From assembly GCA_937892755.1 (NCBI GenBank), contig CALBHT010000086.1:11-64010 (forward strand): a DNA stretch of 64,000 nucleotides, read 5' to 3'. The notes beneath the pieces were generated by a model. That model was given only the letters and a program-made list of their open reading frames with translations, made no database searches and was not told the DNA's origin. Made by a program: the position numbers and the translations under genes. This stretch comes from an uncultured Bacillales bacterium (GTDB taxonomy: Bacteria > Bacillota_I > Bacilli_A > RFN20 > CAG-826). Of this stretch, positions 8,979-53,470 are shown piece by piece. Numbering within the stretch: position 1 is the stretch's first letter; each line of letters opens with the position of its first letter.

Positions 8979-8997
8979 AAATCATTCTCCTTTGGAC

Positions 8998-10593: not shown

Positions 10594-10615
10594 ATTGGAA
10601 TTATCTCCTTAAAAA

Positions 10616-11545: not shown

Positions 11546-11547
11546 AA

Positions 11548-15146: not shown

Positions 15147-15147
15147 G

Positions 15148-16377: not shown

Positions 16378-16421
16378 CGATAATAATCTTAACCGAAAGA
16401 AGCAAAAACTTGAATGAAAGG

Positions 16422-20560: not shown

Positions 20561-22882
20561 TTATAGCCTCGTGAAATCAATGGTTATGGTTGAAGCGGTT
20601 TGGCTATTGATGGTGAAAGTGTAAGGGAAAGTCTCGCCATTATTGAATTTGCCGTTATTTTGATAGCAATTTCGGAGTTTCTCATTCGTGTAGGTATTGT
20701 TGACTGAAGACGTATAAAGATTGCTCATAGAACCAAAGTTTTTCTCAAACCCAGAAGAAAGGAACGCGCTTGTGCCACTCGCTGGCAATATCGTGATCAA
20801 GCGGTTCTTGGAGCCATAGGCGAGATCCTCACTATTGATGTCGGAATTTTTGACATCTAAAGAATAGGAAGCCGTGTTGCTCGCAGCAATCCAGCCATTG
20901 ATGAGAGTTGACCCGTCACTAAGTTGTTTTTCCAAAAATGTAGGATCGTCGCTATATTTCATATCGCTATAGGAACTGCTAGTCGCTCGATAAGAGAACA
21001 CCCTGCTATCGACGTGGAAAGCTTGTAAGCCGCTAGAAGCGTAAGTTCCGCCATGTCCATAAGAAGAGGAGTATTCTTCATAGCCATTACTATCTTTCGC
21101 GTTAAGTCCGGTCGGAGTGTAATACTGAAGAATCACATATTCGTCATAAGGAGTGCCATTCCAGGAAGAAGAAGGAATTAGCAAGAATTCTCCCGTGTCG
21201 GTAAAACTATTAAGAGTGATGGAGAAAGAACCCATCCCGGTGACAACCTTCGGTGCGCACCAGCCCATAAGCATTTTACTATACGCATCATGATCGCCGA
21301 CGTTGCAATCCATCATATCGACCATGCCACAAGGAGCTTCCGCATACGAATTCCCATTTCTTTCGTAAGAATAATAATCATCAAGCCCAAGCATATGCCC
21401 CGTTTCATGAATCAAAGTATGGGTATCAATGTTTGGCGAATAATACCCATTTTCAATCATGCTCATTGGGCTCCAGAAGTAACGATTCGCGACAGGGCTA
21501 GACGTATTGGCTTTTAGGCCTGTTCCTGTGGTATAAGCCCACCAAAGGTCCTCGTTATCATTGACTGTTTTGTCCGTGAAATAAACAAGATCAATGCCGT
21601 CATAATACCCATCGCTATTGGAATCGAACGTCTTGTTTAAGAAACCTTTCGTTTTTGCCCAGCTCACCGCCTCGCTCACAATATCGTTGGTGTCTTTGTA
21701 AGCACTATTTTTCTCACCTTCCTCAAAAGCGGTTTGGAAAGCACTCGCGCTCAATGAATACTGGAATGCGTCAGTTACCGTACCCGTGATGGTCAATTTG
21801 CCATACGATGATTTTCGATAGTAACTTGATAAAGATTCCCAACCCGTTTCGCTACTTTCACCGAAGAAAGCTTTTTGGATCGAGTCGAGCTCGCTAGTAG
21901 AAGGAGCGGCGTCCCCTGCAAAATAAACGGGGACAACCAATAATTTTGGCGAACCAATGGAAGGCAAATTCCCCACGCCAAGGATTCCATAGTCCTCGAA
22001 ATTATCCAAACGATACTTTTGAATTGCAGACAACTCGACGTCATAGTAGCCCTTTTCCCCTTCTCCTTGGCTAGAAGAACCCCCGCCGCTTGCTGATGAG
22101 CTAGATGAGCTTGAGCTCGATTCGTCGCTGGAAGAGGAAGCAATCTCTAATTCAATCTTCGCCAAATAGAAACGCTTGCTTTTCTTGCCCTCGATACGTA
22201 AATAAGAAGTGGTTCCGACATTCTCAAAAAGAAGGTAATTACTATCTGAGTAGGAAGTTCCGCTGACGCTTTTTGAGGCGGAGAAAGAAGATGCCTTCAA
22301 AGTCAAAGAAGCGGCTTCACTATCTTTATAAAGGAATGTGTATGCTTTTAGGGAGCGAATATGGACCGATGAAGAAAGAGTCAACTCCAAGTAGCCATCA
22401 TTTTTAGAAGAGCTGAAGCGGGCCGCTTTGCCTTTCGCGTTGGAATAACAATTCTCCGCGGCCACGTTACTGACGCTGAAACCGGTCACAGAAAAGCGAG
22501 AGGCGTCAATCACTGTGGAAACGCTAGAAGAAAGAGGCTCCGTCCCAAACTCAATTGTCGCTTTGCGCGTCGTTTCTTCGCTTGAAGAACTAGAGGCAGT
22601 GCTACTAGAACTAGAAGAGGCGCTCGAACTAGAAGAACTAGAAGAGGCGCTCGAACTAGATGAACTAGACGAACTAGAAGAGGAATTAGAGGATGTTTCC
22701 CCGCTTTCGCTGGATGAATATGTTACGGAAGAGTCAGAACCGTTTTCGCTAGAATTGGACTCCGAAGCACTTTGTTCGATGGAAGAGATGTCGCTAGAAG
22801 AGGTGCCCCCTTGACCACAAGAAGCGAGCAAAGCCATAGAAGCAAGCAAGCTGACAAGGACGAATTTGTTTTGTTTTCTCAT
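20561..22882 (-). CDS. Surface zinc-metalloprotease lipoprotein, M6 / immune-inhibitor-A-like, with a poly-Ser linker.
   Basis: Lipobox LLASCGQ. HExxHxxGxxD motif LIHETGHMLGLDDYY. An N-terminal KLLVVPVYFAGD segment is typical of InhA-like enzymes. Long Ser and Glu low-complexity tracts. Confidence 0.7.
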   Translation of the reverse strand: MRKQNKFVLVSLLASMALLASCGQGGTSSSDISSIEQSASESNSSENGSDSSVTYSSSESGETSSNSSSSSSSSSSSSASSSSSSSSASSSSSSTASSSSSEETTRKATIEFGTEPLSSSVSTVIDASRFSVTGFSVSNVAAENCYSNAKGKAARFSSSKNDGYLELTLSSSVHIRSLKAYTFLYKDSEAASLTLKASSFSASKSVSGTSYSDSNYLLFENVGTTSYLRIEGKKSKRFYLAKIELEIASSSSDESSSSSSSSSASGGGSSSQGEGEKGYYDVELSAIQKYRLDNFEDYGILGVGNLPSIGSPKLLVVPVYFAGDAAPSTSELDSIQKAFFGESSETGWESLSSYYRKSSYGKLTITGTVTDAFQYSLSASAFQTAFEEGEKNSAYKDTNDIVSEAVSWAKTKGFLNKTFDSNSDGYYDGIDLVYFTDKTVNDNEDLWWAYTTGTGLKANTSSPVANRYFWSPMSMIENGYYSPNIDTHTLIHETGHMLGLDDYYSYERNGNSYAEAPCGMVDMMDCNVGDHDAYSKMLMGWCAPKVVTGMGSFSITLNSFTDTGEFLLIPSSSWNGTPYDEYVILQYYTPTGLNAKDSNGYEEYSSSYGHGGTYASSGLQAFHVDSRVFSYRATSSSYSDMKYSDDPTFLEKQLSDGSTLINGWIAASNTASYSLDVKNSDINSEDLAYGSKNRLITILPASGTSAFLSSGFEKNFGSMSNLYTSSVNNTYTNEKLRNCYQNNGKFNNGETFPYTFTINSQTASTITIDFTRL

Positions 22883-22973
22883 CTTTTTCCCTCCGACAAC
22901 AAATTGAACTATTTATTGTCAATGAAAAACAAGTGAAGGGCAAGGAGAATAAGAAAAAGAAAGTGCTTAGCCT

Positions 22974-24713
22974 TTATAGATGCGTAAAGGAAATCGTAAT
23001 GGAAGATGAAGACTGCGCCGTCACTTCAAAGCGGTACGGGAAAGAAGAACCGTTATTGAATTTGCCATTATTTTGATAACAAGCGGCCATTTTCTCATTC
23101 GTGTAAACGGAAGAGGAAAAAGCATTCATTAAAAGAGTGGAAGAGCCAAAAAGTTTCTCGAATCCCGGATTTAAGAATGCGCTCGTTCCATTCGCGGGAA
23201 GGAAGGTAATCAAACGGTTTTTCGATCCATAAGTAAGCTCACCTGTTGAGATATCCGATTTTTTAACGTCGATAGAATAGCTCCCAGTGTTACTCGCAGC
23301 AATGCCAAGATTGATCGTGTAGGAGCCGTCAGAATGTTCTTTCTGGACTGTCAATGGATCCTCACTATATCGCAAATTGCTATACATGGGATCGGAACTA
23401 AACGGCGTTTTTACCATTTTCGCATCATATGAAACGACTCTGCTATCCACATGAAAAGCCTGTAAACCGGTTGAAGCGTAAGTACCACCATGCCCATAAG
23501 CGATGGAAGAATATTCTTTATACCCATTGCTATCTTTCTTGTTTAAACCGGTCGGGGTGTAATACTGAAGAATCATATATTCGTCATAAGGGGTGCCATT
23601 CCATGACCCAGAGGGAATCAGCAAGAATTCGCCCGTGTCGGTGAAACTATTGAGCGTGATAGAAAAACTCCCTTCTCCCAAGACTACTTTTGGGCTTACC
23701 CATCCCATAAGCATCTTGCTATAAGCGTTATGGTCGCCGACATTGCAATCCATCATATCCACCATCGCACAAGGAGATTCACTATAACGCTCCGTTCCTC
23801 CGATGGTCGTTCTATCGTAAGAATAATAATCGTCTATCCCCATCATATGCCCCGTCTCATGGATCAATGTATGCGTATCGATATTCGGCGAATAGTAGCC
23901 ATTTTCAATCATGCTCATCGGGCTCCAGAAATAACGATACGGAACTGGACTAGAGGCGTTCGCCTTGTTGCTATTTTTAGAATTGTTCGTGGTAAAAGCC
24001 CACCAAAGATTGGAATTATCCTTTTCCGTTTTATCCGTGAAATAAATCAAGTCCACACCATCGAGGAAACCATCCTTGTCCGTGTCGAAAGAAGCGTCAA
24101 AATAATGATTCTTCTTCGCCCAGTTCGTCGCCTCGATTAATAAGTCCGTCGTGTCTTTGTGACCACTTCTATTCTCTTCTAGTTCGAAGGCAATTTGAAA
24201 AGCGCTCGCGCTCAAAGAATATTGGAAAGGAGGCGTGACAACCCCTTCAATATCAAGAAGCCCATAAGAGGACTTCTGGTAATAACTTGATAAAGATTCC
24301 CAACCCGTGTCGCTACTTTCGCCAAAGAAAGCTTTTTGGATCGAGTCGAGTTCACTAGCAGAAGGAGCGGCATCCCCTGCAAAATAAACGGGGATCACGA
24401 GGAGCTTTGGTTTTCCTAGCGAAGGCATATTGCCACTTCCTAACGTTCCATATTCCCCATAATGAGAAAGGCTCATATTTTGAAAAGAGGAGAGAGAGGG
24501 TTCGTAATACCCTCCTTCGGAAAGAGAATAATCGTGAGAAACGGAGCCATATGAAATGCTTTCTTGTCTTGAAATTTCTCCGCTTGAAATTTCTTCACTT
24601 GAAGTGGAGCGAGACGGGAAAAACGTCGTCGGGAAATCGACGATGCCGCAGCTTGTTAATAGTAGAGGCGAAGCAAGTAGCGCACTCATCCATAGTTTTT
24701 TCCTTTTCTTCAT
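22974..24713 (-). CDS. Surface zinc-metalloprotease lipoprotein, M6/InhA-like paralog.
   Basis: The catalytic half (LIHETGHMMGIDDYYSY, KLLVIPVYFAGDAAPS) aligns closely with the 20561-22882 protein. The start was set at MKKRKK with GAGGTG upstream. The track ORF begins at an upstream GTG. Confidence 0.7.
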   Translation of the reverse strand: MKKRKKLWMSALLASPLLLTSCGIVDFPTTFFPSRSTSSEEISSGEISRQESISYGSVSHDYSLSEGGYYEPSLSSFQNMSLSHYGEYGTLGSGNMPSLGKPKLLVIPVYFAGDAAPSASELDSIQKAFFGESSDTGWESLSSYYQKSSYGLLDIEGVVTPPFQYSLSASAFQIAFELEENRSGHKDTTDLLIEATNWAKKNHYFDASFDTDKDGFLDGVDLIYFTDKTEKDNSNLWWAFTTNNSKNSNKANASSPVPYRYFWSPMSMIENGYYSPNIDTHTLIHETGHMMGIDDYYSYDRTTIGGTERYSESPCAMVDMMDCNVGDHNAYSKMLMGWVSPKVVLGEGSFSITLNSFTDTGEFLLIPSGSWNGTPYDEYMILQYYTPTGLNKKDSNGYKEYSSIAYGHGGTYASTGLQAFHVDSRVVSYDAKMVKTPFSSDPMYSNLRYSEDPLTVQKEHSDGSYTINLGIAASNTGSYSIDVKKSDISTGELTYGSKNRLITFLPANGTSAFLNPGFEKLFGSSTLLMNAFSSSVYTNEKMAACYQNNGKFNNGSSFPYRFEVTAQSSSSITISFTHL

Positions 24714-24770
24714 CATTTTCACCTCGCGAATAAACCTTATTATGCGTAGAACAACCACTTTTTCAAGAAT

Positions 24771-24797
24771 AATAAAAACCTCCCCGCTAGAGGGAGG
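24771..24797 (-). terminator. Terminator downstream of the 229-aa membrane protein gene, which is the last gene of the opp transcription unit.
   Basis: Stem cctccc/gggagg plus a U-tract in the minus-strand sense. Confidence 0.5.
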
Positions 24798-24805
24798 TCA
24801 CTCAT

Positions 24806-25495
24806 TTAATTGCCTTTTGAAAGGTCGACATGCGATTCGGTAAGCTGAAGCGGTTCTGGATCGTAATCGCTATAGATATTGATGAAGGATAAACCGACAT
24901 AAAGAGCGACCACAAGATGAGCCACGCCCCAATCCCCCCAATACACGATATCGCCTAGATACGAATAAGCATCAAGCAAACTATCGTATTGAACAAGTCC
25001 GAAATAAAGGGCGATGCCTGCTAAAACAAGGGAAATCATATAGATGCTGCCATAGTCTCCATCCCACGCTTTCTTAAGGAAGAAATAATGCATGACGATA
25101 AGAAGAACATCGGCTGCAATAAGAAAAACAAGGGAAATCACTTGGCGCGTAAAGCTCGTGTCGAAAGTCCAAACGGTCTTTGCAATGGCATAGGCGCTGA
25201 TGATGGCTTCACCAACAAGAACAAGCAAAACATGAGAAGAATCTTTCCGGAAAAGCAGATCGAGGGAAAGAAGGATGCAGTAGACGAAAAGAATTGCGGC
25301 AAAGGTGACGGAGATAGCATTCCCCATCGTGAATAGATAACCATTATTGCCCAAATCGTTTGGTTCAGGGTTAAAAGCGTCCGGATTACCGAGAGCTAAG
25401 AAATAATAGATGAAGAAAACGAATAGAAACACAATCGCAATGAGTGGAAAAAGGGCGAATGCGTTCCACTTAAATGAGAATTTATTCTTTTTCAT
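24806..25495 (-). CDS. Polytopic membrane protein, hypothetical. Last gene of the opp transcription unit.
   Basis: About 6 hydrophobic helices. Overlaps the oppF stop by 14 nt. Confidence 0.55.
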   Translation of the reverse strand: MKKNKFSFKWNAFALFPLIAIVFLFVFFIYYFLALGNPDAFNPEPNDLGNNGYLFTMGNAISVTFAAILFVYCILLSLDLLFRKDSSHVLLVLVGEAIISAYAIAKTVWTFDTSFTRQVISLVFLIAADVLLIVMHYFFLKKAWDGDYGSIYMISLVLAGIALYFGLVQYDSLLDAYSYLGDIVYWGDWGVAHLVVALYVGLSFINIYSDYDPEPLQLTESHVDLSKGN

Positions 25496-26744
25496 GGCGT
25501 TCCCTTTCCTGATCCAATTGATGAATCTCTTTTTTGTATTTTTCGATTTCGACGCTATTTGCTAAAACAAAGTGCCCTGGCAAAATCTCCGTCAAAGCAG
25601 GTTTTTCTTTTGAATAATCATGTTCTTTCGCCGGATTATAAATCGTTCTGACACGTCCTTTTTCAAAACGTGGGTCAGGTTTAGGAATCGCGGAAAGAAG
25701 CGCTTTTGTGTATGGGTGAAGCGGATGTTTGAAAAGCTCATCGCTCGTCGCGATTTCTACAATCGATCCATAATACATCACGGCAATGCGGTCGCAGAAA
25801 TATTTCACAACGCTCAAATCATGAGCGATGAAGAGCATCGTAAGGCCCATTTCTTCCTTGATATCATTTAATAAGTTAAGGATTTGGGCGCGGATGGATA
25901 CGTCAAGAGCGCTAATAGGTTCATCGCAAATAAGAAGCTTCGGGTTCATGACTAGAGCACGCGCAATGCCGATTCTTTGACGTTGGCCACCGCTGAATTC
26001 ATGAGGATAACGAGAAGCATATTCTGGGATAAGCCCGACTTTTTTGAGCATCTCCGCACAGATTCTAGCGTTTTCTTGTTTGTTATAATGTCCTTGAATA
26101 TGAAGTCCTTCTTGAATGATATCTTCCACCGTCATTCTTGGATCAAGAGAGTCAATCGGGTCTTGGAAAATCATTTGGATTTCGTTACGGAGGGCGCTAG
26201 GGCAATGAGCGTTATCGTAGCGGATTTGCTTGATAATCTCTTTTTGCTCTTTGACATGCGCTTCGTTTTCTTGGCGAATCGCTTTGATCTCTTTTTCGCA
26301 TTCTTCTTGAATAGAAGAAGCGCTTGCAGGATCTTGTTCAATCGCTTCTTTTGCTTTTAATCGAAGCGCTTTGATTTTCTCTTCTGCGTGGATACGACTC
26401 CATTTAATTTCTTTCTCGTTCCAACGGCTCCCCGCAGAAATACGATATCCACGGTAATAAATGGAACCGGAAGTCGCAGGATAAAGGCCAATCACGCAGC
26501 GGCCAGTCGTCGTTTTGCCACATCCCGATTCGCCAACAAGCCCAAAGCACTCCCCTTCATGAACATCAAAAGAGATGTCATGAACCGCTTTGGTTTTGTA
26601 TCCCCCGTAATTGAAGAATTCCTTCAAATGTTTGACGCGGAGAATAATCTTTTGGTCAACAAGTTCTTGCGAAAAAGTAACCTTTGGATCAACCGATGGG
26701 TTCTTTTCCATTTTGTTTTCGCTTAAATCCATGTGCTTTTTCAT
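25482..26744 (-). CDS. oppF: Oligopeptide ABC transporter ATP-binding protein OppF, with an internal insertion.
   Basis: Walker A GESGCGKTT, signature FSGGQRQRIGIARAL, Walker B LLICDEPISALD. An ATGA overlap with oppD. Confidence 0.85.
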   Translation of the reverse strand: MKKHMDLSENKMEKNPSVDPKVTFSQELVDQKIILRVKHLKEFFNYGGYKTKAVHDISFDVHEGECFGLVGESGCGKTTTGRCVIGLYPATSGSIYYRGYRISAGSRWNEKEIKWSRIHAEEKIKALRLKAKEAIEQDPASASSIQEECEKEIKAIRQENEAHVKEQKEIIKQIRYDNAHCPSALRNEIQMIFQDPIDSLDPRMTVEDIIQEGLHIQGHYNKQENARICAEMLKKVGLIPEYASRYPHEFSGGQRQRIGIARALVMNPKLLICDEPISALDVSIRAQILNLLNDIKEEMGLTMLFIAHDLSVVKYFCDRIAVMYYGSIVEIATSDELFKHPLHPYTKALLSAIPKPDPRFEKGRVRTIYNPAKEHDYSKEKPALTEILPGHFVLANSVEIEKYKKEIHQLDQERERHEKE

Positions 26745-28234
26745 TGCTTATTTCCTTTGGAACGCTCTAAGGAGTTGCGAATACGCTCACTCACAATCTT
26801 CGGCATGACCGCAATAGGTGCACGCTCATCTAATAGCCAACTTGCCACGTAATGAGTATCGCTCAGTGCAAACATTGGCGGCTCTTTTCTAAAATCGATG
26901 CCCATCGCGTATTTGCTACGGAAAGCAAACGCATCTCCAATAGGAGGATAAAGCATATTTGGCGGAGTTCCTGGAATGGCTTCAAGCCGCTCCTTGCTGT
27001 CAATATCCGGAATTGAGCTCAATAAGGCCCAAGTGTATGGGTGAGCAGGCGCGTAGAAGACATCTTCCGCCGTTCCATATTCAACAATTTTTCCTGCATA
27101 CATCACGGCTACACGGTCAGCCATATTCGCCACGACACCAAGGTCATGAGTGATGAAAATAATGGACATGTTTCTCGCTTTCTTTAAGCGATTGATGAGC
27201 TCAAGAATTTGAGCTTGAATGGTAACGTCGAGGGCGGTCGTTGGCTCATCGCAAATCAAAACGTCTGGGTTTGCGGTAAGAGCGATTGCAATAACAATAC
27301 GCTGTCTCATACCGCCAGAGAATTCAAACGGATATTGGTTGTAACGGCGTTCTGGATTCGGGATACCGACTTCCGCCATAATCTGAAGCGCTCTTTTCTT
27401 CGCTTCCTTATGGGTGACGCGACATTCGCTTAAATAACGGCGATGTTCTTTGATAAAGTCGCAATAAAAGCCAGCAAAATCCTTGAACATGTTTTTTTCA
27501 ATCGCCTTCACGTTATTGATATGACGCGTAAAGATTTCCTTTTTGTGGGCTTTCACGGTTTTTCTCGCTTCCGCTTTCTTTTTGCGTAAAGCCGCTTTAT
27601 CTGCGACTAAAATCTTTTTAAATTCGGCTTTCTTTTCGAAATAACGCGCTTTTGCTTTTGCGATATCTTCTTTGCTTGCCTTTGTTTTCTTCAAATGCTT
27701 CAGCGTTTCTTTTTCAAGCATAAGCAAACGCTGATCGTTTTTGTATTGAATGAATTCTTTGGCGATGATGTCTTCAAATTCTTTCTTTAAATGGTTGCCA
27801 TTTGCAATCATGACTTCGGTAATTTGCTTCCCGATTTTCATAATTGGGTTGAGAGAAGAAAGAGGATCTTGGAAAATCATCCCGATTTTGGTTCCTCTTA
27901 TTTTGTGGAATTCATCTTCCGCGATTTTGGTCAAATCTTCGCCTTCATAAATCACGGAGCCAGACTCGATCCGCGCATTCTTGGGCAAAATACCCATAAT
28001 CGTTTTATTCGTCACGGATTTCCCAGAACCCGATTCCCCAACGATGCAAAGGGTCTCTCCTTTATAAAGATCGAAAGAGACGCCTCGGACCGCTTGGACT
28101 TTTCCTTGATCGCTATGAAATGAAATCGAGAGATTGCGAACGGAAAGAACCGCTTCCTTATTGTTCTTCTTAGATACCGACGTCACGAAAGGATAATCAA
28201 TCGTTGGATAGATTTTCTTTGCTGTATTTTCCAT
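26741..28234 (-). CDS. oppD: Oligopeptide ABC transporter ATP-binding protein OppD, with a ~190-aa charged insertion.
   Basis: Walker A GESGSGKSV, signature FSGGMRQRIVIAIAL, Walker B VLICDEPTTALD. Confidence 0.85.
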   Translation of the reverse strand: MENTAKKIYPTIDYPFVTSVSKKNNKEAVLSVRNLSISFHSDQGKVQAVRGVSFDLYKGETLCIVGESGSGKSVTNKTIMGILPKNARIESGSVIYEGEDLTKIAEDEFHKIRGTKIGMIFQDPLSSLNPIMKIGKQITEVMIANGNHLKKEFEDIIAKEFIQYKNDQRLLMLEKETLKHLKKTKASKEDIAKAKARYFEKKAEFKKILVADKAALRKKKAEARKTVKAHKKEIFTRHINNVKAIEKNMFKDFAGFYCDFIKEHRRYLSECRVTHKEAKKRALQIMAEVGIPNPERRYNQYPFEFSGGMRQRIVIAIALTANPDVLICDEPTTALDVTIQAQILELINRLKKARNMSIIFITHDLGVVANMADRVAVMYAGKIVEYGTAEDVFYAPAHPYTWALLSSIPDIDSKERLEAIPGTPPNMLYPPIGDAFAFRSKYAMGIDFRKEPPMFALSDTHYVASWLLDERAPIAVMPKIVSERIRNSLERSKGNKQ

Positions 28235-30312
28235 TAGTCTTCCGCTCCTTTCAATGATGGGTTAAACGCATCACGTAACCCGTTCCCGAAGAGGTTGAAC
28301 GAAATCATGATAAGAGCCATGATGATCGAAGCGAGAACAATTAAATAGGAATAGTTGCCGATATCAGCCTGGGCGTTAGACAAAGTAATTCCGAAGCTTT
28401 GAGAGCCGGTGAACGCAAGCGCGTTCGGGAGCAAGTAAGAAATATTCGCCTCGGTGAAGATGACACTTGGGATCATTAAGACGGATCCTGTCACAATGGT
28501 GCCAATACCATTTGGTAAAATGTGACGGAAAATCAACCGCGCGTCACTTGCGCCAAGCGTGCGGGATGCGAGAACGTATTCTCTTCCTTTATAACGATAG
28601 AATTGGCTTCGTGTGGATCCAGCAACGCCCATCCATCCCGTCAAGCAAAGCGCTAGAAGGAAGGTCCAGAAATTTGATCCGAGAAGAAGAATGATGAGTG
28701 TCATCATGACAATCCAAGGCATGCCGCCAAGAATCTCGGTGAAGCGTTCCATGACCATGTCGACCCAACCGCCGAAATAGCCGCTGATGGAACCCCAGAC
28801 AACGCCGATAGCAATATTAATAACCGCGCTCAAAAAGCCTAAACCAAGGGAAGTCAATAGACCGCTGAAAACCTCTTTGAAGAAGTCATGCCCAAATTTA
28901 TTGGTTCCAAAAATGTATTTTTGTGGCTGGCAGCTTCCGATGTAACCCATTTGGTAGTCATAGCGATATAGCGAACGCTTGCAGTAAAGCTCTTTCACTT
29001 CGACCGGTTTTCCAATCACGGCGCTTGTTTTGGTGTGATTTTGGTAAATCACTTCACGAATCGGGCAATACTGTTCGCCAAGCTCGGTAAGAACGAACTT
29101 GCCAGGCGTTTTGTGCGTGCCCATTTCGCTCGTCCACACGTAAGTCATATATCCTTTATTAATATAAGAATTGATGGTTTCCTCGGCGAACATGAATTCA
29201 TCGATGCCAAAAGCGGCTTCATAATAATCGTATTGGAACGAGCCATAATATACTTTTGCGTGATAAATCCCAACGCTGCTTGTAGAACTATAAGCGCTCC
29301 AGTAAAGTGCTTTTCCCGTTTTCGAATCCACGGTTTTCTGATTGAAATTGCCAACAAAGGAAGTTGCGTCAGAAAATAGGCCATTCGAAATATCCGTCAT
29401 CTCATCGTTCTTCGTTCCGCTGATAGAAGTCAAATAAACATTCTTCTCAACATGGGCTTCGTCGCCACGTAGCCCGACAACCAAAGACGGTTCGACACTT
29501 TCCGGTTTCCCTGATGCCACATATGCATCGTTATTTTTGAGATAAGAAGTGACATCATGGATCGTGATGGCATAATTGTCTTCGCTTAAAATGACATCGC
29601 CGCCAAGAGGGATAAAGGTCACAACGCCCGTTTCGAATTCACACTGAAGGCCAAAGAAGAGTGCTGGATTCACCCCTTTGTTTTCTTCATTCATCGAAGC
29701 GTAGTCGAATGTAAAAGTGAATGAAACATCATCGGAAACGACGATATCCATCGGTTGTGAATAAATACCCGCATCTTTGTATGGGTTTTCAGCGTCGTTA
29801 CGGTCCTTCACATAAGATAAGGCAACATTGCCACCTTCTCCGTATTCAGCAACAAGTGCGCTATAACTATTCGCGTAGGATTCGGTGACTTCGATTTCGC
29901 CGATAACGCCATTTTGTTTATAATTGCCATCCGCCGGTAGTTTCTTAGTCGCTGGGTCAAGAATTGCTTTATCCACATGACCAGTCCCATCAAGGAAATG
30001 CGCATCATTCACGTCATTCCATTTTGGGGGGAGATAGGCAAGGGTGTCGATATTCGTCTCAATATCATTGTGATTAGCAAGAGGGACGATGATTGCCATC
30101 GCGATAAGAACAAACAAAATACCACTCGCGACAACGCTACTTTTATTTTTCACGAAACGCTTCATCGCGTCCTTGAAAAAAGTAGTCGGCTTAGAATCAA
30201 ATTTCTTATCAAAAATTTTGTCGTCTTTTTGGGCGAATTCGAAATCAGGAACGTTCGCAAAAGGAAGTTCTTGTTTCGTTTCGACGGTTTGTTTTTCCAT
30301 CTTCTTCCTCAT
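28234..30312 (-). CDS. oppC: Oligopeptide ABC permease OppC with a ~350-aa extracytoplasmic insertion.
   Basis: N-terminal TM anchor, a large soluble loop, then DppC-like TM core GASDARLIFRHILPN...IMISFNLFGNGLRDAFNP. Confidence 0.8.
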   Translation of the reverse strand: MRKKMEKQTVETKQELPFANVPDFEFAQKDDKIFDKKFDSKPTTFFKDAMKRFVKNKSSVVASGILFVLIAMAIIVPLANHNDIETNIDTLAYLPPKWNDVNDAHFLDGTGHVDKAILDPATKKLPADGNYKQNGVIGEIEVTESYANSYSALVAEYGEGGNVALSYVKDRNDAENPYKDAGIYSQPMDIVVSDDVSFTFTFDYASMNEENKGVNPALFFGLQCEFETGVVTFIPLGGDVILSEDNYAITIHDVTSYLKNNDAYVASGKPESVEPSLVVGLRGDEAHVEKNVYLTSISGTKNDEMTDISNGLFSDATSFVGNFNQKTVDSKTGKALYWSAYSSTSSVGIYHAKVYYGSFQYDYYEAAFGIDEFMFAEETINSYINKGYMTYVWTSEMGTHKTPGKFVLTELGEQYCPIREVIYQNHTKTSAVIGKPVEVKELYCKRSLYRYDYQMGYIGSCQPQKYIFGTNKFGHDFFKEVFSGLLTSLGLGFLSAVINIAIGVVWGSISGYFGGWVDMVMERFTEILGGMPWIVMMTLIILLLGSNFWTFLLALCLTGWMGVAGSTRSQFYRYKGREYVLASRTLGASDARLIFRHILPNGIGTIVTGSVLMIPSVIFTEANISYLLPNALAFTGSQSFGITLSNAQADIGNYSYLIVLASIIMALIMISFNLFGNGLRDAFNPSLKGAED

Positions 30313-31373
30313 TTTTTTGCTCCCATGCGAATACGCGGATCAACGATGCCATAGCTCAAATCCACAATCAAAGTGGCGAATAAGCCAATCAAGGTGTAGA
30401 TGGCGCTATCAACCATGACGACAGAATAGTCTTTGTCATTTAGTGCTTCGACGAACAAGCTGCCAACGCCTGGAATACCATAGAGTTGTTCAAGAACCAT
30501 GGAGCCAGACAAAATGCCAATAAACTGCCCAATGATCATTGGGACAATCGGAACCATGGAATTGCGTAAAGCGTGACGAATGACGCTTTGTCCTTTTGTT
30601 AACCCTTTGGTGCGAGCAAGAAGAAGGAATTCGCTTGACATCACTTCTGTAAGCTCCGCGCGGGTGTAGCGAGCAAAGGCAGCAACTGAGCCAAAGCAAA
30701 GCGCGGCAACCGGGATAATATAAGCTTTAAAAGCCAGCAAATGATCAGCATTTGCTTGCGCGTCACTCGGCCAACGATTGGGGAGCCATCCCGTGGAATA
30801 GCTAAGCCAAATAAGAAGGAAGGAAATCAAGACGAAACTCGGAACGGAAATGAAAACCATGATCACGGTTGAAATGATGGAATCGGTCAAATTGTTCTTG
30901 TTCAAAGCCGCAATGACCCCTAAACCAATACCGAGTGGGATAGAAATAATCATTGAAATGATATTCAAGCGCATCGAATATGGAAGACGGCTCATCAAGA
31001 TGGTGATAACGCTTTGACCGACGGAAATCTTGCTGGATGTGCCCCAGTCCCATTTCGTCACAATATTCCCAAGCCACATCACATAGCGGTGCATAATCGG
31101 GTAAGGGGCATAATAAACCGTGGTCTGTCCCAAAGAGACTTGCGCCGCGAAATCGCCGCTTTGAATGCGGCTGAGATCTTTCACTGGGTCAAGTTCGTAA
31201 TAATACCCGAGTTTGACTTGCTCATTCCAAAACGCCCAAGCTTCCGCCGGCTTGTTTCCGACTGTTGTAACAGGCAAACATTGGAGAAGGATGTAAGTGA
31301 CGGAGAGAATGATGAACGCCGTCAAGAAGATGAACAGAATTCGTTCGAGTACGTATTTTAATGTTTCTTTCAT
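30309..31373 (-). CDS. oppB: Oligopeptide ABC permease OppB.
   Basis: DppB/OppB-like. C-terminal VDLSYGIVDPRIR. Confidence 0.85.
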   Translation of the reverse strand: MKETLKYVLERILFIFLTAFIILSVTYILLQCLPVTTVGNKPAEAWAFWNEQVKLGYYYELDPVKDLSRIQSGDFAAQVSLGQTTVYYAPYPIMHRYVMWLGNIVTKWDWGTSSKISVGQSVITILMSRLPYSMRLNIISMIISIPLGIGLGVIAALNKNNLTDSIISTVIMVFISVPSFVLISFLLIWLSYSTGWLPNRWPSDAQANADHLLAFKAYIIPVAALCFGSVAAFARYTRAELTEVMSSEFLLLARTKGLTKGQSVIRHALRNSMVPIVPMIIGQFIGILSGSMVLEQLYGIPGVGSLFVEALNDKDYSVVMVDSAIYTLIGLFATLIVDLSYGIVDPRIRMGAKK

Positions 31374-31481
31374 AGTGGTTAACGAAAGAATTTTACTCGC
31401 TTTATCTAAAAAGATAAACGCTTAGTTTTCATTGAAAGGAAAAAGCCCCGCGAATAAGCGGAGCTTTCTACGTTTTTTCTT

Positions 31482-34067
31482 TTATGGATGGACGGGTTCC
31501 ATGCCGATATCGGAGAGGTTCGCGTAACTAAATATTGATTTGTATTTTGTTACCGTTTCGCCGTTTACATCCTTATAGGAATATTCCAAATTGCATTGGA
31601 CGTAATAGATATTTTGCGTCGCTTTTGCGTCTTTGGCGTTTTTCTTAGCTTGCTTTGTGATGTCGCTCTTCTTCACCTTGATGCGGATTTCGCCATTGGC
31701 GGTAACTGTCTCTGCATTGGCGCTATAAATGTAAGTCAAAGCGCTGACACTTTCGGCAGTAGTAATGGCAACGCCGCTTGTCTTAAACGAGAAGATGTAT
31801 TCACCGTTATCGTCTGTCATGTCCGGATAGACAGCAGTCAAGTCAACCGTCTCCCCATCCTCGCCTTCAACGATTTGGACATTGCCAGCAATTGGAGTGA
31901 CAAGTCCTTCATTTACGACAGTAGAAGCGTTTGCGGCGCTCCAAAGTGCGTCATAGCTCCAAGCCTCTTCTTTTTTGTCTTTGGAAAGTGGATTTGCGTA
32001 AATGATCGGGTCTTCTTCGTTTAGATTTGCGGTGATATCGCCCCAGTTAAGGCAGAAGCCTTGGGCCAAATCATCGGTCGCGCATGTACTCATGAATTCG
32101 AGAGGATTGAGGACGTTACCAGAGATGGCGCCTTCCGCGAAATCGAATTCGCCGTGGTCCATCAAGGTGTAAGTATCGGTGTACTGAGTTCCACCGATTT
32201 TGAGTTCGATGGTAAGCTCGATATCGTAATCTTTCGCAACCTCATTAAAGTCATCTTCAATGTATTTCTTGACCCATTTTCCGATGTTGTCGATGGTATC
32301 TTGATAACGATAGATACCGGTCAATTTAATCTTTTGGCCACGTTTCATTTTGCCAGAAGCGAGCATGTCTTCGATGCAACGTTTGAAAAGGCTTTGCGCC
32401 GTCGCGGAACTGAAACCGTATTCGTTGCCACCGGCACTTTCGATATAAGGAGCAACAACGGCTTTTCCTTGTTCGGTGTCTCTCCAGAACTCTTTGGCGT
32501 CTGGGTCTTGCGTATAAGCGTTGGACAAATAGCCAAGAGCGGCAGTACGGCCGGCGATTTTGGCAAGTTCCCCACGATTGATGGCGAAATAGCATCCAGT
32601 CAAGAAGTCGTCATTGCTCATGATTGGTTTGACGGCCCAGTATTTATCGGCGGTATGCTTGAACACTTTTCCGTTTTCGCCGAAGTAGTATTCCCACTCC
32701 TCTTTCGTGCAGGAATTGATGTTGAGCTTAATAACGGTCGATCCTTTCGTCTTCAAAACGGTGCCGTCACTTCCGTGATTTTTGAGTTCCCCTGTCGGAA
32801 TCGTGACTTCGTCTAGTTCGTTATTCAAGAACGCTTGATAAGCGTCTTTATCGGCGTTCGAGCCGCTATAAACACGCTCCGTCAAACCAGCGAAATGGTA
32901 TTTGCTGCTATTGTAATACAAGTCGTTTTTCTTGAAGGCCATGATTTGGTTGTCTTCCCACCATGTTGGGACATATGGACCACAAGAAATGACATTATCG
33001 AGAGTTTTGGATGGATCAGCAGGATTGGAAACGCGTTTTCCATAGTTGTCCGCTCCGCCAATATCCGAGATAAAAGAGGCTGGAACTGGGGAATAAAGCC
33101 CACTGGAAAGAGAAGTGCGGGCATAGTTCATCGTCTTTGGGGTGATGAATTCAAAGTCGAGGGAGCCAGCCGCTTCATTGACTTGAATGCCGACTTTGCT
33201 CCAGTCTTTGGAACCATACATGTATTCCATAACGCCTTCGAAGCCGCTGGAATCCTGCCCTAACTCAGAAGCGCGAACGAAGCGGTTATCGAGCATCACT
33301 TTGAACGGAGTGAGATAGTCTTCAAGTTCCACCCCTTTATCATTGTATTTTTGGTAGAGTTTGCTCGTTTCTGGGACGGCGTATTTGACGCCATCTTTCC
33401 CGGTTTTAAGCGTAACGCGCCAATATTTGGACGATTTCCCCTCACTATTAGCAACGACATTTCCGTTTTTGTCGAGCATGATTGGCTCATCGGTTTTGGA
33501 TAAGCCGGCGACCCACTTATAGTCGGTCTTGGCGTCATTCATATCAACTTCGAAATAGCCGCTGGTGATCATGCTGTTTCGATCAGCGACATCCGCACCC
33601 GTGCTATTCCAATAATTGAATGTGCCGGAATCAATGGAAGTATAGGAATGGAAATAGTCCTTCCATTCTTCTTTTGGCTCATTAATTTCGCCGTCGTACA
33701 TCATGCGGCTTCCCTTGAAATCGGCCATGCCGGTTCCAAAACCGAAGTTCGTGATGTAAGTGTGAGTTGGAAGATTGTTGAAGACGCGCTGTGAGAACTG
33801 CTCACTGCTGGAATCGTCGTAAAGAGGGATGCCAGCAAGATGGTTTTTCAGCGCATAGGATTCCAATTTTCCAAGGATGTCGAGACGATCTTGATAATCC
33901 AAGGTTGTGAAATCGTAAACGCCAGAAGCTCTTGCCCCTTCGTATTTTTTGATCTCCGAACTGCCTGTGCTGCCGCCGGATTCGGAAGTGTCACCACCAC
34001 CGCCGCAACTAGCAAGCATCATCGCAGCCAAGAACAAAGGAATACCAACTTTCATGAATTTTTTCAT
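31482..34067 (-). CDS. oppA: Oligopeptide-binding lipoprotein OppA (family 5 SBP).
   Basis: Lipobox MLASCGG. Core CGPYVPTWWEDNQIMAFKKNDLYY. First gene of the opp operon. Confidence 0.75.
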   Translation of the reverse strand: MKKFMKVGIPLFLAAMMLASCGGGGDTSESGGSTGSSEIKKYEGARASGVYDFTTLDYQDRLDILGKLESYALKNHLAGIPLYDDSSSEQFSQRVFNNLPTHTYITNFGFGTGMADFKGSRMMYDGEINEPKEEWKDYFHSYTSIDSGTFNYWNSTGADVADRNSMITSGYFEVDMNDAKTDYKWVAGLSKTDEPIMLDKNGNVVANSEGKSSKYWRVTLKTGKDGVKYAVPETSKLYQKYNDKGVELEDYLTPFKVMLDNRFVRASELGQDSSGFEGVMEYMYGSKDWSKVGIQVNEAAGSLDFEFITPKTMNYARTSLSSGLYSPVPASFISDIGGADNYGKRVSNPADPSKTLDNVISCGPYVPTWWEDNQIMAFKKNDLYYNSSKYHFAGLTERVYSGSNADKDAYQAFLNNELDEVTIPTGELKNHGSDGTVLKTKGSTVIKLNINSCTKEEWEYYFGENGKVFKHTADKYWAVKPIMSNDDFLTGCYFAINRGELAKIAGRTAALGYLSNAYTQDPDAKEFWRDTEQGKAVVAPYIESAGGNEYGFSSATAQSLFKRCIEDMLASGKMKRGQKIKLTGIYRYQDTIDNIGKWVKKYIEDDFNEVAKDYDIELTIELKIGGTQYTDTYTLMDHGEFDFAEGAISGNVLNPLEFMSTCATDDLAQGFCLNWGDITANLNEEDPIIYANPLSKDKKEEAWSYDALWSAANASTVVNEGLVTPIAGNVQIVEGEDGETVDLTAVYPDMTDDNGEYIFSFKTSGVAITTAESVSALTYIYSANAETVTANGEIRIKVKKSDITKQAKKNAKDAKATQNIYYVQCNLEYSYKDVNGETVTKYKSIFSYANLSDIGMEPVHP

Positions 34068-34209
34068 AAAACTCCTTTCATTAACTTTCTTGTCTATAAT
34101 TTAGTCATATGCGCCTTACCCATGGGCGCAATGTATAAAGGAAACCAAAGATTGGCGAAATTTCAATCATTATTTTCAAAATTCACTAAGAATTATCGCT
34201 TGATGTAAG

Positions 34210-34623
34210 TTACGAATGGCTTGCAACAGTCACTTCGATAATCACAAGTAGCACAATCGCCGCTACAAGAAAAATAGAGCTAATAATTAAATAAGGCCAA
34301 TAATAAGGACCGCTTCTCCTCCGCTTCTCCTCTTTTTCGATTTTGTACTCGTAAGCAGTATCCCATCTCTTTATACCATCTGGACGAAAAGACTCAAAAA
34401 ATCGATAGAATTGGAAGTTAAACACATCAAATGCTCCGCTTCTTTCTATCCAAACGAAAAGAAGGATTGCAATATCGATTGAAGCAGCGCAAAACAAAGC
34501 GTCGCAAACACCGGTTATTGTATAAATTTTCCGTAAGAAAAAGACGAGGCAGAAAACAAGAACGGCCACACCGACGGCGACAAGCCAGCCAACGATTCTC
34601 CTTTTTTTCCACGCGTCCATCAT
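34210..34623 (-). CDS. Small membrane protein with 3 TM helices. Hypothetical.
   Basis: Hydrophobic segments VGWLVAVGVAVLVFCLVFFL and ISSIFLVAAIVLLVIIEV. Confidence 0.45.
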   Translation of the reverse strand: MMDAWKKRRIVGWLVAVGVAVLVFCLVFFLRKIYTITGVCDALFCAASIDIAILLFVWIERSGAFDVFNFQFYRFFESFRPDGIKRWDTAYEYKIEKEEKRRRSGPYYWPYLIISSIFLVAAIVLLVIIEVTVASHS

Positions 34624-34824
34624 TGCAGTAGTCTAAAGCAAAATCATGAGAAAGAAAAACACGAATCGCATTTTTCCTCATCGGCGAAAACAAGTAGTGG
34701 ATTCCTTAAATTATCCTTGACATTGTTTTTTATCCTTGTAGTCTTCTCAACGTGAACTCGCCTATGCGCACATACGCATTAAGTGTGTTATTAAGTAATT
34801 CGATTACCATGAAAGGAGACATGT

Positions 34825-36936
34825 ATGACGAATGCAAAAAGCAAAAAGACAATTGCCCTATTCGCTCTTGCCGCGACTGGTTTATTAAGCTTGGCCTCAT
34901 GCGGCCCTAGTGGGGAAACGTCGGCCCCTTCTTCGGAAGGCGGTTCCCTTTCGCCTATTTCAAGTAGAGACCATACAAACGACGACACCTATTTAGAGGT
35001 CACCTTGAAGAATACGGATATTCCAGAAGGCGGAACGTTCTTCGATAGTGCAAAACCGACTGTCACATATGTGAATAACAAAACGGGGAAACGTCAAGAC
35101 GCCACCAACTGGCAGTTCCGCACTTCTTATTCGATTGTTGACCGAAACGACAGCAGCAAAACTTATAAAGCAGGTGATGCCTTGCCCGCTGGCTTATATC
35201 GAGCGACGATCTCAAACGAAGAAGATTTGATCGAGACTCAAATCGATTTCTCCGTCAGTCAAAAGGAAGTCGCCGTCGCTAGTGAGGGAAATGGTTATAA
35301 GACCGTCTCCGCCTCCAGTATGGCGAAATATGCCGTTAATAAGCATAAGGAACTTGGCGCACTCAAAGCGGGAAAATTCCCATCCTTAGGCACCCCAAAG
35401 ATCCTTGTGGTCCCCGTCGAATTTGCAAAAGACAAAAACGGGAACGCCTCTTCTGGAGCGTTATTCGAAAACCGCGATGATGTCTTAAGAACGCTAGACG
35501 AGGCTTTCTTCGGGAGCACGAAGCATAGTAAATACCAATCCGTTTCAAAATGGGAATCCCTCAGCTCCTATTATTACAAGAGCAGCTATGGGAAACTCGA
35601 TATCGGAGGAGAAGTCACGCCCGTGTACACCTACACAGGTGCTTCTACGAAAGACTTCGAGCGGAACAATTTGGATAAGCTCATTAACGATATCGTCAAT
35701 TGGCTGAAAACATCGCAAAACTACGATATGAAGGATTACGATTACGACAAAGATGGCTATATTGATGGAATCGAAGTCGTATACATGACCGATCAAATCA
35801 CCCCAGGGGCGAGCGGTGTCAATACGGGCAATGACCTTTGGTGGAATTTCTGCACTGTTCTCAATAGTCAAGCTCCGCAGATGGGCAATCCAGATAACCC
35901 AGTTCCACAACGCTATTTCTGGAGCCGCTGGGATTACGTAAAGAACAATTATTACGCCAAGAACAATGATGGACAGCCCTGCGCAGACGCACACACCATC
36001 GTTCATGAAACCGGCCACATGATGGGTTTGAACGATTATTATTCCTACGACAAAACCGATAGCGGCGCTCAGCTTGGTGGCCCAGCCGGCGGCGTGGATA
36101 TGATGGATATGAACGTCGGTGATCATAACGCCTATAGCAAAATGGCTTATAACTGGGTCGATGCAAAAGTCATCGACGGAAGCTCGAGCAACTTCAAGAT
36201 CACGCTCAATAGTTACACCGACACCGGCGACTTCCTCGTCCTAAGAAACACAAGCGAAGACAAATGGAACGAGACGCCATGGGATGAATATCTGCTTCTT
36301 GAATACTACACCCCCACTGGCGTGAACGAAGCCGATAGCCAAGGTTACCCCGAATGGCAAGTTGCTTCTTCCACAGGTTCTAACGCCTATGGCCATGGCG
36401 GCACTTACGAGCATCCAGGCTTACAAGTATTCCACGTCGATTCGCGCTTAGCTTCGACGAAAGGCAAATGGGATAGTGCCAACAAAAAGCCAGTATCGAA
36501 CACTTCTAAGTTCGGATATACGGACAATCTCTATGATGAGCAAACTATCAATGAGGAAAATGGCACTTACGAAAGCGCCTTCACCTCTCCGCATAGCAAC
36601 ACCCCTTCACGAAGCGTTGATGTCGATAACAACAAGAGCGAAAACGGCGCTTATCGTGAACTCCATGCCATCTTCTCAAGTGGCGTGAATGGCCTGGACG
36701 GAACAGGCTATTATAGTAGCTTCGGCAACACCAAAAACCTCTTTGGGAAAAGTGACTACAAATACAAAGGCAGTGAAGATAATCTCTATGGTGGAAGTAA
36801 TTACAGCAACTACAGAATGCGCGATTTCTTCCCGAACGATTTGCTCTTCGATGATAAAACAAGTTTGAATTGGACGTTCAATGTCGTCGAGCAAACCGAT
36901 AGTTCCATCACACTGCACTTTATTGAGAATAAATAA
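34825..36936 (+). CDS. Surface zinc-metalloprotease lipoprotein, M6/InhA-like, third paralog.
   Basis: SD AAAGGAG. Lipobox LLSLASCGP. TIVHETGHMMGLNDYYSYDK (HExxHxxGxxD). KILVVPVEFAKD. Confidence 0.75.
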   Translation: MTNAKSKKTIALFALAATGLLSLASCGPSGETSAPSSEGGSLSPISSRDHTNDDTYLEVTLKNTDIPEGGTFFDSAKPTVTYVNNKTGKRQDATNWQFRTSYSIVDRNDSSKTYKAGDALPAGLYRATISNEEDLIETQIDFSVSQKEVAVASEGNGYKTVSASSMAKYAVNKHKELGALKAGKFPSLGTPKILVVPVEFAKDKNGNASSGALFENRDDVLRTLDEAFFGSTKHSKYQSVSKWESLSSYYYKSSYGKLDIGGEVTPVYTYTGASTKDFERNNLDKLINDIVNWLKTSQNYDMKDYDYDKDGYIDGIEVVYMTDQITPGASGVNTGNDLWWNFCTVLNSQAPQMGNPDNPVPQRYFWSRWDYVKNNYYAKNNDGQPCADAHTIVHETGHMMGLNDYYSYDKTDSGAQLGGPAGGVDMMDMNVGDHNAYSKMAYNWVDAKVIDGSSSNFKITLNSYTDTGDFLVLRNTSEDKWNETPWDEYLLLEYYTPTGVNEADSQGYPEWQVASSTGSNAYGHGGTYEHPGLQVFHVDSRLASTKGKWDSANKKPVSNTSKFGYTDNLYDEQTINEENGTYESAFTSPHSNTPSRSVDVDNNKSENGAYRELHAIFSSGVNGLDGTGYYSSFGNTKNLFGKSDYKYKGSEDNLYGGSNYSNYRMRDFFPNDLLFDDKTSLNWTFNVVEQTDSSITLHFIENK

Positions 36937-36964
36937 GATTATATAGGAAAGGAAAATACATATT

Positions 36965-44844: not shown

Positions 44845-44868
44845 AGAGTATTTTTCCCTTTCTTCTCA

Positions 44869-45675: not shown

Positions 45676-45698
45676 ATTGTTAACCTCGTTTTGATCCA

Positions 45699-45737
45699 GA
45701 CAAGGAATATCCTTGTAGCCTTGTCAATATATAGACA
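45699..45737. promoter_or_regulatory. Two adjacent perfect inverted repeats, candidate operator sites, upstream of the lipoprotein operon.
   Basis: acaagga-ata-tccttgt at 45699-45715 and ttgtc-aatatata-gacaa at 45720-45737. Confidence 0.25.
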
Positions 45738-45810
45738 AAGTAAAGAATTTCAATCGTTAAATTCATTTTTTGCTTATTTCATGATTTTGCTATGGAAACG
45801 CAAAGGGATA

Positions 45811-45843
45811 AAGAGAAAACGAGTTCCCCATCTGGACTCGTTT
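45811..45843 (-). terminator. Terminator downstream of the 757-aa lipoprotein gene.
   Basis: Stem aaacgagt/actcgttt with a U-rich tail in the minus sense. Confidence 0.5.
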
Positions 45844-45855
45844 CCTTGTTACGTT

Positions 45856-53467: not shown

Positions 53468-53470
53468 AAT

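Follow-up and report, generated by a model that had tools for sequence, protein, structure and literature searches.

Divergent InhA-like metalloprotease lipoproteins beside a complete opp operon point to a probable peptide-feeding neighbourhood in an uncultured small-genome lineage of the Bacilli

A 64,000-nucleotide stretch of DNA from an uncultured Bacillales bacterium of the GTDB lineage RFN20; CAG-826 (contig CALBHT010000086.1 of assembly GCA_937892755.1, positions 11 to 64,010; the whole stretch is called the window below) was found to encode three paralogous metalloprotease-like lipoproteins, P1, P2, and P3, on the two sides of a complete oppABCDF operon. This arrangement is read, with moderate confidence, as a nutritional module for proteolysis and import in a gut or rumen bacillus with a small genome, belonging to the Candidatus Enteromonas/RFN20 group. 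The three lipid-anchored InhA-like enzymes (family M6, metzincins with an aspartate zinc ligand) would act as zinc endopeptidases and would cut environmental or host proteins at the outer face of the membrane. The released oligopeptides would be captured by OppA, and probably also by a second SBP_bac_5 protein encoded beside P1, and imported through OppBCDF, and cytoplasmic peptidases encoded outside the window would finish their digestion, so that the cell may depend on peptides acquired in this way. Such a pathway has precedents: InhA1, an M6 enzyme, is described as obtaining essential amino acids for Bacillus anthracis from haemoglobin and serum proteins (Terwilliger 2015, according to the citing text in PMC11163986), and growth of Staphylococcus aureus on aureolysin-digested collagen requires Opp3 (PMC6495380).

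All three open reading frames (ORFs) are intact, and the window contains exactly three copies of the family, as judged by tblastn and by a scan of the long ORFs for HExxH. P1 and P2 share 66–68% identity, and the alignments of P3 with both extend past 500 residues at 38–41% identity (tblastn E 1e-94 to 1e-103), a likeness far above the level of chance. Each signal peptide is basic and then hydrophobic and ends in a lipobox (LLASCG in P1, LLTSCG in P2, and LSLASCG in P3), and all three test positive under the criterion [LVI][ASTVI][GAS]C, with LASC, LTSC, and LASC, respectively. The lipobox cysteine is kept across the family, being invariant among 26 relatives and at least 90% conserved among 101, the two alignments, reaching ~30% identity, in which conservation was assessed throughout. 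The zinc-binding motif reads IHETGHMLGLDDYYSY, IHETGHMMGIDDYYSY, and VHETGHMMGLNDYYSY in P1, P2, and P3; its common form, (I/V)HETGHM(L/M)G(L/I)(D/N)DYYSY, is the one quoted in the original prediction, an earlier note made from this DNA, and the HETGHMxGxxDYY site is unchanged across the paralogs. The prediction of three paralogous HExxHxxGxxD lipoproteins is thus borne out. A strand motif quoted alongside, KLLVVPV(Y/E)FA.D, proved too strict; the region is present but actually reads KLLVVPVYFAGD, KLLVIPVYFAGD, and KILVVPVEFAKD.

Around the shared catalytic domain the three proteins are built differently. P2, the shortest, consists of the lipobox, a short linker, the catalytic domain, and a C-terminal domain, and is without an N-terminal domain. 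P3 carries an Ig-like β-domain (residues ~55–145) ahead of the catalytic domain (~155–530), and P1 carries a poly-Ser linker, an extra domain of ~145 aa, and a second Ser linker in this place; both end in a C-terminal β-domain. Domain-level scans gave no Pfam match to the extra N-terminal domain of P1, the Ig-like domain of P3, or the C-terminal domain (~170 aa). The long P1 linker that had been predicted is real, but it is poly-Ser and not the Ser/Glu tract described, residues 27–104 comprising 50 Ser out of 78 (64%) and 7 Glu. The DNA of this tract includes a short tandem repeat, and the second Ser-rich stretch (residues 250–278) closes off the extra domain. In two P1 orthologs, 65–67% identical, the extra domain is kept, the linker spans ~20–35 residues, and the second linker is absent. 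Because linker length differs so greatly between species (78 aa here versus ~20–35 aa), variation by expansion and contraction of the repeat is suggested, and the tract may plausibly serve as a flexible spacer or stalk whose length is not kept among orthologs. Three P2 orthologs are 63–66% identical to P2.

P1–P3 form a divergent InhA-like (M6-like) subfamily in which every catalytic position is intact. The NCBIfam model of the M6 domain, TIGR03296, aligns with all three proteins over profile positions 13–275 of 286 (E 3.6e-19 to 2.9e-24). An AlphaFold2 (AF2) model of P3 built from 101 homologs was obtained with a predicted local distance difference test score (pLDDT) of 91.6 and a predicted template modelling (TM) score, pTM, of 0.90, and places HETGH on a predicted helix at residues 390–399. 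When this model was compared with the PDB by Foldseek, the sole significant family was the InhA2 zymogen of B. anthracis (4yu6 and 4yu5; E 6e-10 to 2e-9, probability 1.00, 12–13% identity, and a whole-chain TM-score of ~0.4), the next match having a probability of 0.06. A whole-chain score of this size suggests that the superposition covers just part of the chain; the catalytic-domain fold of P3, as modelled, is InhA-like. By the near end-to-end alignment and the fold match, the predicted M6/InhA-like identity holds as a distant kinship. In sequence comparisons, a phmmer search of PDB sequences found nothing, and the 26-sequence family profile retrieved from the same sequences only the snapalysin motif HETGHVLGLPDHY (E 0.16) and a spurious signal-peptide match, InhA2 being recovered by neither search.

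Among the relatives, the residues that catalysis would call for are conserved. In P3 numbering, Glu-395, Gly-401, and Tyr-405 are invariant in both alignments, and His-394, His-398, Asp-404, and Tyr-406 show no change among the 26 relatives and a conservation of 90% or more among the 101. An EF-hand-like D-x(3)-D-G-x(2)-D stretch (Asp-306, Asp-310, Gly-311, and Asp-314), possibly a calcium site, is also conserved, as are Asp-425–Met-426–Met-427–Asp-428, a candidate Met-turn by sequence that lies 21 residues past the Asp ligand, and N430-x-G-D-H434. Judged from sequence, P1–P3 conform to the definition of a metzincin in which Asp, as in snapalysins and thuringilysins, is the third zinc ligand and a Tyr stands two residues later (PMC12237041). 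The original prediction was to be given up if the motif region aligned with a non-peptidase family or if the catalytic Glu or His were substituted in orthologs; no such alignment appeared, and the residues are conserved to the extent just described. The same residues bear on the idea that the proteins are catalytically dead binders, a metalloprotease fold that merely holds peptides or proteins for OppA. Sequence models that score below their cut-offs would suit it, but Glu is invariant, and such conservation of both His and of Asp is expected only where catalysis is retained, which makes dead binders scarcely credible. The M64 IgA protease (IgAse) family was also considered and was rejected, its spacing being HExxHxxxGxxD rather than HExxHxxGxxD, with no Pfam M64 match and no IgAse structure retrieved by Foldseek.

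The operon between the proteases is complete, as had been predicted: all five components of an Opp/Dpp-type importer carry their diagnostic domains (SBP_bac_5, OppC_N/BPD_transp_1, and ABC_tran with oligo_HPY). In NCBIfam, OppD and OppF score best against the Mycoplasma-type models MMSYN1_0167 and MMSYN1_0168, respectively, and they carry charged insertions similar to those of the models. The proteases had been placed immediately upstream and downstream of opp; they do flank it, but one small membrane-protein gene intervenes on each side, encoding a 229-aa protein on one and a DUF3899 protein on the other.

To place this neighbourhood among relatives, the loci of the best 80 among 562 species-level relatives were searched with all window proteins, and the 44 that had at least 8 kb on both flanks were taken as assessable. 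In 37 of these 44, the M6-like gene had opp permease genes no more than 10 kb away (52 of the 80 overall, several opp-less loci being truncated sequence), where chance adjacency is estimated at a few percent for ~1-Mb genomes with one or two opp operons. At least three arrangements recur. In arrangement A, found at 46 loci with proteases 39–73% identical, oppF, D, C, B, A, and in some cases the DUF3899 gene lie on one strand, and a P3-type gene followed by a gene for a 605-aa lipoprotein diverges from them; the window matches it exactly at 25482–38782. Arrangement B (5 loci) consists of an SBP_bac_5 gene and oppB, C, D, and F followed by two more divergent M6-like genes on the same strand. In arrangement C (3 loci), a P2-type ortholog (63–66%) diverges from an oppBCD cluster headed by an ortholog of the window's second SBP_bac_5 gene. 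One further locus has opp on the opposite side of two M6-like genes, and an SBP_bac_5–oppBCDF operon with the protease gene diverging from it also occurs in a relative whose protein shares just 30% identity with P3. Since arrangement A is retained down to ~39% identity, and since independent arrangements involve other paralog clades and another SBP_bac_5 system, a functional coupling of protease and importer can be argued, and the protease–opp module of the original prediction stands on this synteny.

The synteny also weighs on two other roles for the proteases. In one, they would serve colonisation or counter host defence by destroying antimicrobial peptides, immunoglobulin, or mucus proteins, with Opp recycling the debris or being unrelated. 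The nearest solved structure is a member of the immune inhibitor A family, whose canonical InhA degrades antibacterial peptides of insects; the bacteria live as commensals in gut and rumen, the window is full of surface proteins of host-interaction type (collagen repeats, BspA-type LRR, Big_2, and Flg_new), and at least three paralogs that differ in their N-terminal domains would be suited to different targets. An Asp-ligand metzincin from gut Erysipelotrichales is, moreover, a proven IgA protease (PMC12237041). This role leaves unexplained, however, why opp adjacency should persist across three arrangements, several paralog clades, and deep divergence, and the proven IgA protease has the different motif spacing noted above and no M64 model or structure was matched here, so that it is considered unlikely; it is compatible with feeding, and the two need not exclude one another. 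In the other, the proteases would be sheddases or maturases that trim or release the cell's own lipoproteins and giant adhesins, as in mycoplasmas. Many large lipoproteins are indeed encoded in the same window, the conserved 605-aa lipoprotein is encoded together with P3, and InhA1 is called a modulator of the B. anthracis secretome in the title of Arolas 2016. The conserved partner is nevertheless a peptide importer and not an adhesin, and the adhesin genes of the window do not adjoin the proteases, which leaves own-surface processing improbable.

The subfamily is large and recurs in small genomes. A word-indexed search returned 275 homologs, nearly all from metagenome-assembled genomes (MAGs) named "Bacilli bacterium", which NCBI labels "hypothetical" and JGI "M6 family metalloprotease-like protein". 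Among 1.84 billion cluster representatives (50% identity), a profile search found 1,850 sequences at E ≤ 1e-30, 4,282 at E ≤ 1e-10, and 8,486 at E ≤ 1e-3, and the 562 relatives sampled above were confirmed by scanning a single genome for each GTDB species. The best 80 belong to MAGs from gut and rumen that bear the labels uncultured Bacilli, Mollicutes, Candidatus Enteromonas, or Candidatus Alloenteromonas. The relatives' genomes measure 1.06–1.2 Mb, including one closed chromosome of 1.06 Mb, and each ~1-Mb genome holds several copies of the subfamily; Candidatus Enteromonas, whose genome is ~1.2 Mb, corresponds to GTDB genus UBA733 of family CAG-826 and order RFN20 (PMC8035907). The reduced biosynthesis invoked in the original prediction is indicated only indirectly, by the ~1–1.2-Mb genomes of relatives. 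Certain RFN20 clades reassign AGG or CGG. An alternative code was rejected for the window, where all codons are normally used and AGG encodes a family-invariant Arg in P1, so the standard code applies.

Copy number is pertinent to a further explanation, in which the proteases would mature pheromones by trimming exported pro-peptides that Opp then re-imports, as in RRNPP-like quorum sensing. Opp is the route of pheromone import in Firmicutes, and extracellular metalloproteases mature some pheromones. Against this, neither a small-peptide gene nor an RRNPP-type regulator is evident beside the module, and at least three large multi-domain paralogs in a 1-Mb genome would be excessive for the purpose; pheromone maturation is considered very improbable.

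Several observations weigh against the feeding interpretation or limit it. It is built on sequence, predicted fold, and synteny, and it is for immune evasion rather than for feeding that canonical InhA is chiefly known. TIGR03296 scores the three proteins at 69.7–86.5 bits against a curated cut-off of 110.8, a sub-threshold result that, going by the alignment, is genuine homology beyond the curated boundary. Pfam PF05547 (Peptidase_M6), the model proposed as a check in the original prediction, matched none of the three, either as full proteins at E ≤ 0.01 or as the isolated catalytic domain at E ≤ 5, and matched only 3 of the 26 relatives, weakly (best E 1.8e-6). With PF05547 silent and TIGR03296 below its cut-off, family membership depends on a sub-threshold match together with the fold. 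The Opp components have oligopeptide models as their best matches, but all fall below the NCBIfam equivalog cut-offs, and for that reason oligopeptides are only the probable substrates. About seven assessable loci, roughly a fifth of that set (L053–L058 are examples), are without opp nearby, as is locus P0099, and arrangement A is probably a single inherited ancestral state, so that its 46 loci do not count as independent events. Finally, a predicted terminator and a promoter-like site split opp from P2–P1, and P3 diverges from opp. A CodY-box search gave 1 match where 8 were expected by chance, a k-mer search of five upstream regions found nothing shared except the ribosome-binding site, and Rfam detected no T-box and no riboswitch in the window, only one tRNA-Lys. 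These signals accordingly lend no support to co-regulation, which the feeding interpretation would lead one to expect, and "module" here denotes a conserved neighbourhood and not an operon.

If the proteases and Opp do work together, the strategy is a familiar one, extracellular proteolysis followed by Opp import, and no new mechanism is involved. A modest novelty lies in how deeply and consistently the genes are coupled to opp in this uncultured gut lineage with small genomes, and in how large the unannotated subfamily is. Order RFN20 and its small-genome kin among the Bacilli are frequent inhabitants of human, chicken, horse, and ruminant guts but are uncultured and poorly studied; a concrete picture would follow of RFN20-type bacteria feeding on protein by way of peptides. 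Peptones or casein, and zinc, are suggested as additives for cultivation, and better annotation also follows.

Table 1. Coordinates of the proteases, the opp operon, their neighbours, and associated signals in the window
Feature	Position	Strand	Details
Second SBP_bac_5 (OppA-like) lipoprotein, 833 aa	17769-20270	-	SBP_bac_5 E 2.4e-34; lipobox LLAGCS
Terminator-like hairpin after P1	20492-20522	-	12-bp stem and T-run, 39 nt past the P1 stop codon
M6-like metalloprotease lipoprotein P1, 773 aa	20561-22882	-	ORF intact; TIGR03296 E 3.1e-23
P1 zinc site HETGHMLGLDD	21377-21409	-	Motif scan
Tandem repeat in P1 poly-Ser tract	22607-22681	-	Tandem Repeats Finder (TRF); 27-nt and 9-nt periods; 27-nt unit in 2.3 copies, 97% match
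M6-like metalloprotease lipoprotein P2, 579 aa	22974-24713	-	Shortest form; ORF intact; TIGR03296 E 3.6e-19
P2 zinc site HETGHMMGIDD	23829-23861	-	Motif scan
Promoter-like site before P2	24739-24766	-	TTGAAA-16-CATAAT, 10/12 consensus positions
Strong terminator-like hairpin ending the opp unit	24777-24799	-	GACCTCCCTCTAGCGGGGAGGTT then TTTTATTATT T-run; 7 nt past the stop codon of the 229-aa gene
229-aa multi-pass membrane protein	24806-25495	-	No family match; between oppF and P2
oppF, ATPase, 420 aa, charged insertion	25482-26744	-	ABC_tran and oligo_HPY; MMSYN1_0168 OppF E 2e-124
oppD, ATPase, 497 aa, Lys/Glu-rich insertion	26741-28234	-	ABC_tran and oligo_HPY; MMSYN1_0167 OppD E 1.5e-137
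oppC, permease, 692 aa	28234-30312	-	OppC_N 44-96, BPD_transp_1 503-688; Opp3C E 3e-76
oppB, permease, 354 aa	30309-31373	-	BPD_transp_1 E 1.6e-37; Opp3B E 3e-63
oppA, substrate-binding lipoprotein, 861 aa	31482-34067	-	SBP_bac_5 E 2e-9; lipobox MLASCG
DUF3899 small membrane protein, 137 aa	34210-34623	-	Pfam DUF3899 E 1.8e-10; between oppA and divergent P3
M6-like metalloprotease lipoprotein P3, 703 aa	34825-36936	+	ORF intact; TIGR03296 E 2.9e-24
P3 zinc site HETGHMMGLND	36004-36036	+	H394, E395, H398, G401, D404, followed by Y405 and Y406
605-aa lipoprotein	36965-38782	+	28 nt downstream of P3; lipobox

Two conserved neighbours, the second SBP_bac_5 lipoprotein and the 605-aa lipoprotein, were absent from the original prediction. 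The former, encoded directly downstream of P1, is 22% identical to OppA, and permease genes of its own are absent nearby; eight orthologs head a separate opp-like operon adjoining M6-like genes, and in the source genome the protein may share OppBCDF. Genes for two membrane proteins with RDD domains (324 and 422 aa) and for one of 409 aa without a family match follow directly downstream of it, at 14172–17690 (minus strand). The gene for the 605-aa lipoprotein is kept in 34 of the 46 arrangement-A loci. Comparison of its sequence with Pfam, NCBIfam, and the PDB gave no match, and a word-based search found only 10 homologs, an identical protein being present in the UBA MAG GCA_002478085.1; its AF2 model is β-rich and of moderate confidence (pLDDT 75.8), and no fold match is convincing, the weak ones to BFA1 and TbpB having TM-scores of no more than 0.14. 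At 20 or more of the 46 arrangement-A loci, the DUF3899 gene occupies the place that it has in the window. The 229-aa protein is fast-evolving and was detected at just 4 loci; because its gene overlaps the end of oppF by 14 nt, it is taken as the last gene of the opp unit.

OppC has an extracytoplasmic insertion of ~380–400 residues (~97–480), located between the first transmembrane segment (OppC_N) and the second segment/BPD_transp_1 core, and full-length matches show that the insertion is retained in all arrangement-A loci. On a stronger form of the feeding interpretation, the lipid-anchored protease, OppA, the OppC ectodomain (~400 residues), the 605-aa lipoprotein, and DUF3899 would make up one physical surface machine. 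The protease would dock on or beside OppA and the OppC ectodomain and hand peptides straight to the transporter, with the 605-aa lipoprotein as substrate-capture subunit and DUF3899 as membrane organiser. Such a machine would be a "peptide utilisation locus" of wall-less or reduced Bacilli, the counterpart of the surface glycan and peptide utilisation complexes of Bacteroidota, but we regard it as quite unlikely.

The predicted terminators and promoters that lie between units suggest separate transcripts and not a single operon. The likely units, as drawn from sequence signals, are oppABCDF with the 229-aa gene, P2–P1, the second SBP_bac_5 gene, DUF3899, and P3 with the 605-aa lipoprotein gene, the last two genes being probably co-transcribed. 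P2 has ATG codons at 24716 and 24713 behind a GAGGTG ribosome-binding site, the terminator predictions include none in the 91 nt that separate P2 from P1, and a further terminator-like site follows the second SBP_bac_5 gene at 17752–17733.

Elsewhere in the window, an SNase-domain lipoprotein (6984–8978, minus strand, 664 aa, lipobox LLASCG) is encoded directly behind a sugar-type ATP-binding cassette (ABC) importer at 8998–13969, which comprises an SBP_bac_8 lipoprotein (8998–10593), two permeases, and a MalK-like ATPase, all on the minus strand. In mycoplasmas this layout has been read as a means of scavenging nucleotides or nucleic-acid precursors (PMC3585158), and by analogy 6984–13969 would be a second, parallel pair of surface hydrolase and importer in the window and context for the feeding interpretation. 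Very large predicted surface proteins are unusually dense (64–2811, 4613–6523, 42148–48129, and 50141–60749) and contain collagen triple-helix repeats (915 aa), Big_2, BspA-type LRR_5 (1108 and 1376 aa), and Flg_new/InlB B-repeats, consistent with the surface of a host-associated, possibly wall-less cell. The right end (61091–63974, minus strand) holds two housekeeping genes, tuf (EF-Tu, 405 aa) and, as its 3' portion only, fusA (EF-G), which could serve as phylogenetic anchors.

Among known enzymes, P1–P3 stand nearest to InhA1 and InhA2 of the Bacillus cereus group (MEROPS M6 thuringilysins), with which they share HExxHxxGxxD, the Asp third ligand, the catalytic fold, and a near end-to-end match to TIGR03296. 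InhA is reportedly a secreted zymogen in which a pro-peptide is followed by catalytic, VEG, and MAM-like domains. The window proteins are instead lipid-anchored, with variable N-terminal β-domains and a C-terminal domain without a Pfam match; P3 has only the 12–13% identity to InhA2 given above, and linkage to opp is a feature of the P1–P3 genes. Snapalysin (M7) also has an Asp third ligand with a Tyr two residues after it and was matched through HETGHVLGLPDHY, but the match is limited to the motif, and the protein has 132 aa. IgAse (M64) has the Asp third ligand and the Tyr two residues later in common with P1–P3 and differs by the extra residue in its motif and by the lack of any sequence or fold match.

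As a pathway, the closest parallel in logic is the PrtP–Opp–Pep system of lactic acid bacteria, in which a surface-anchored protease degrades protein and Opp imports the oligopeptides on which an amino-acid auxotroph depends. PrtP is a wall-anchored, subtilisin-like serine protease (S8), and prtP is usually plasmid-borne and not located beside opp, whereas the protease of the window is an M6-like lipoprotein encoded next to opp. In the oppDFBCA–pepO cluster of Lactococcus lactis, a metallopeptidase gene does adjoin opp, and its product, PepO, is an intracellular M13 enzyme. The aureolysin–Opp3 pair of S. aureus likewise couples an extracellular zinc metalloprotease, which makes collagen peptides, to growth via Opp3 (PMC6495380); aureolysin is, however, a secreted thermolysin-like enzyme (M4) whose gene is unlinked to opp3. 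The SNase-lipoprotein and ABC loci of mycoplasmas (MAG_5040 and mhp379) present, in wall-less or reduced Bacilli, the same design at the level of the genome, a surface hydrolase lipoprotein encoded beside the presumed importer of its products, and have been interpreted by the same synteny argument (PMC3585158), but their hydrolase is a nuclease and their importer one of sugar type, for nucleic-acid precursors, where the window pairs a protease with Opp.

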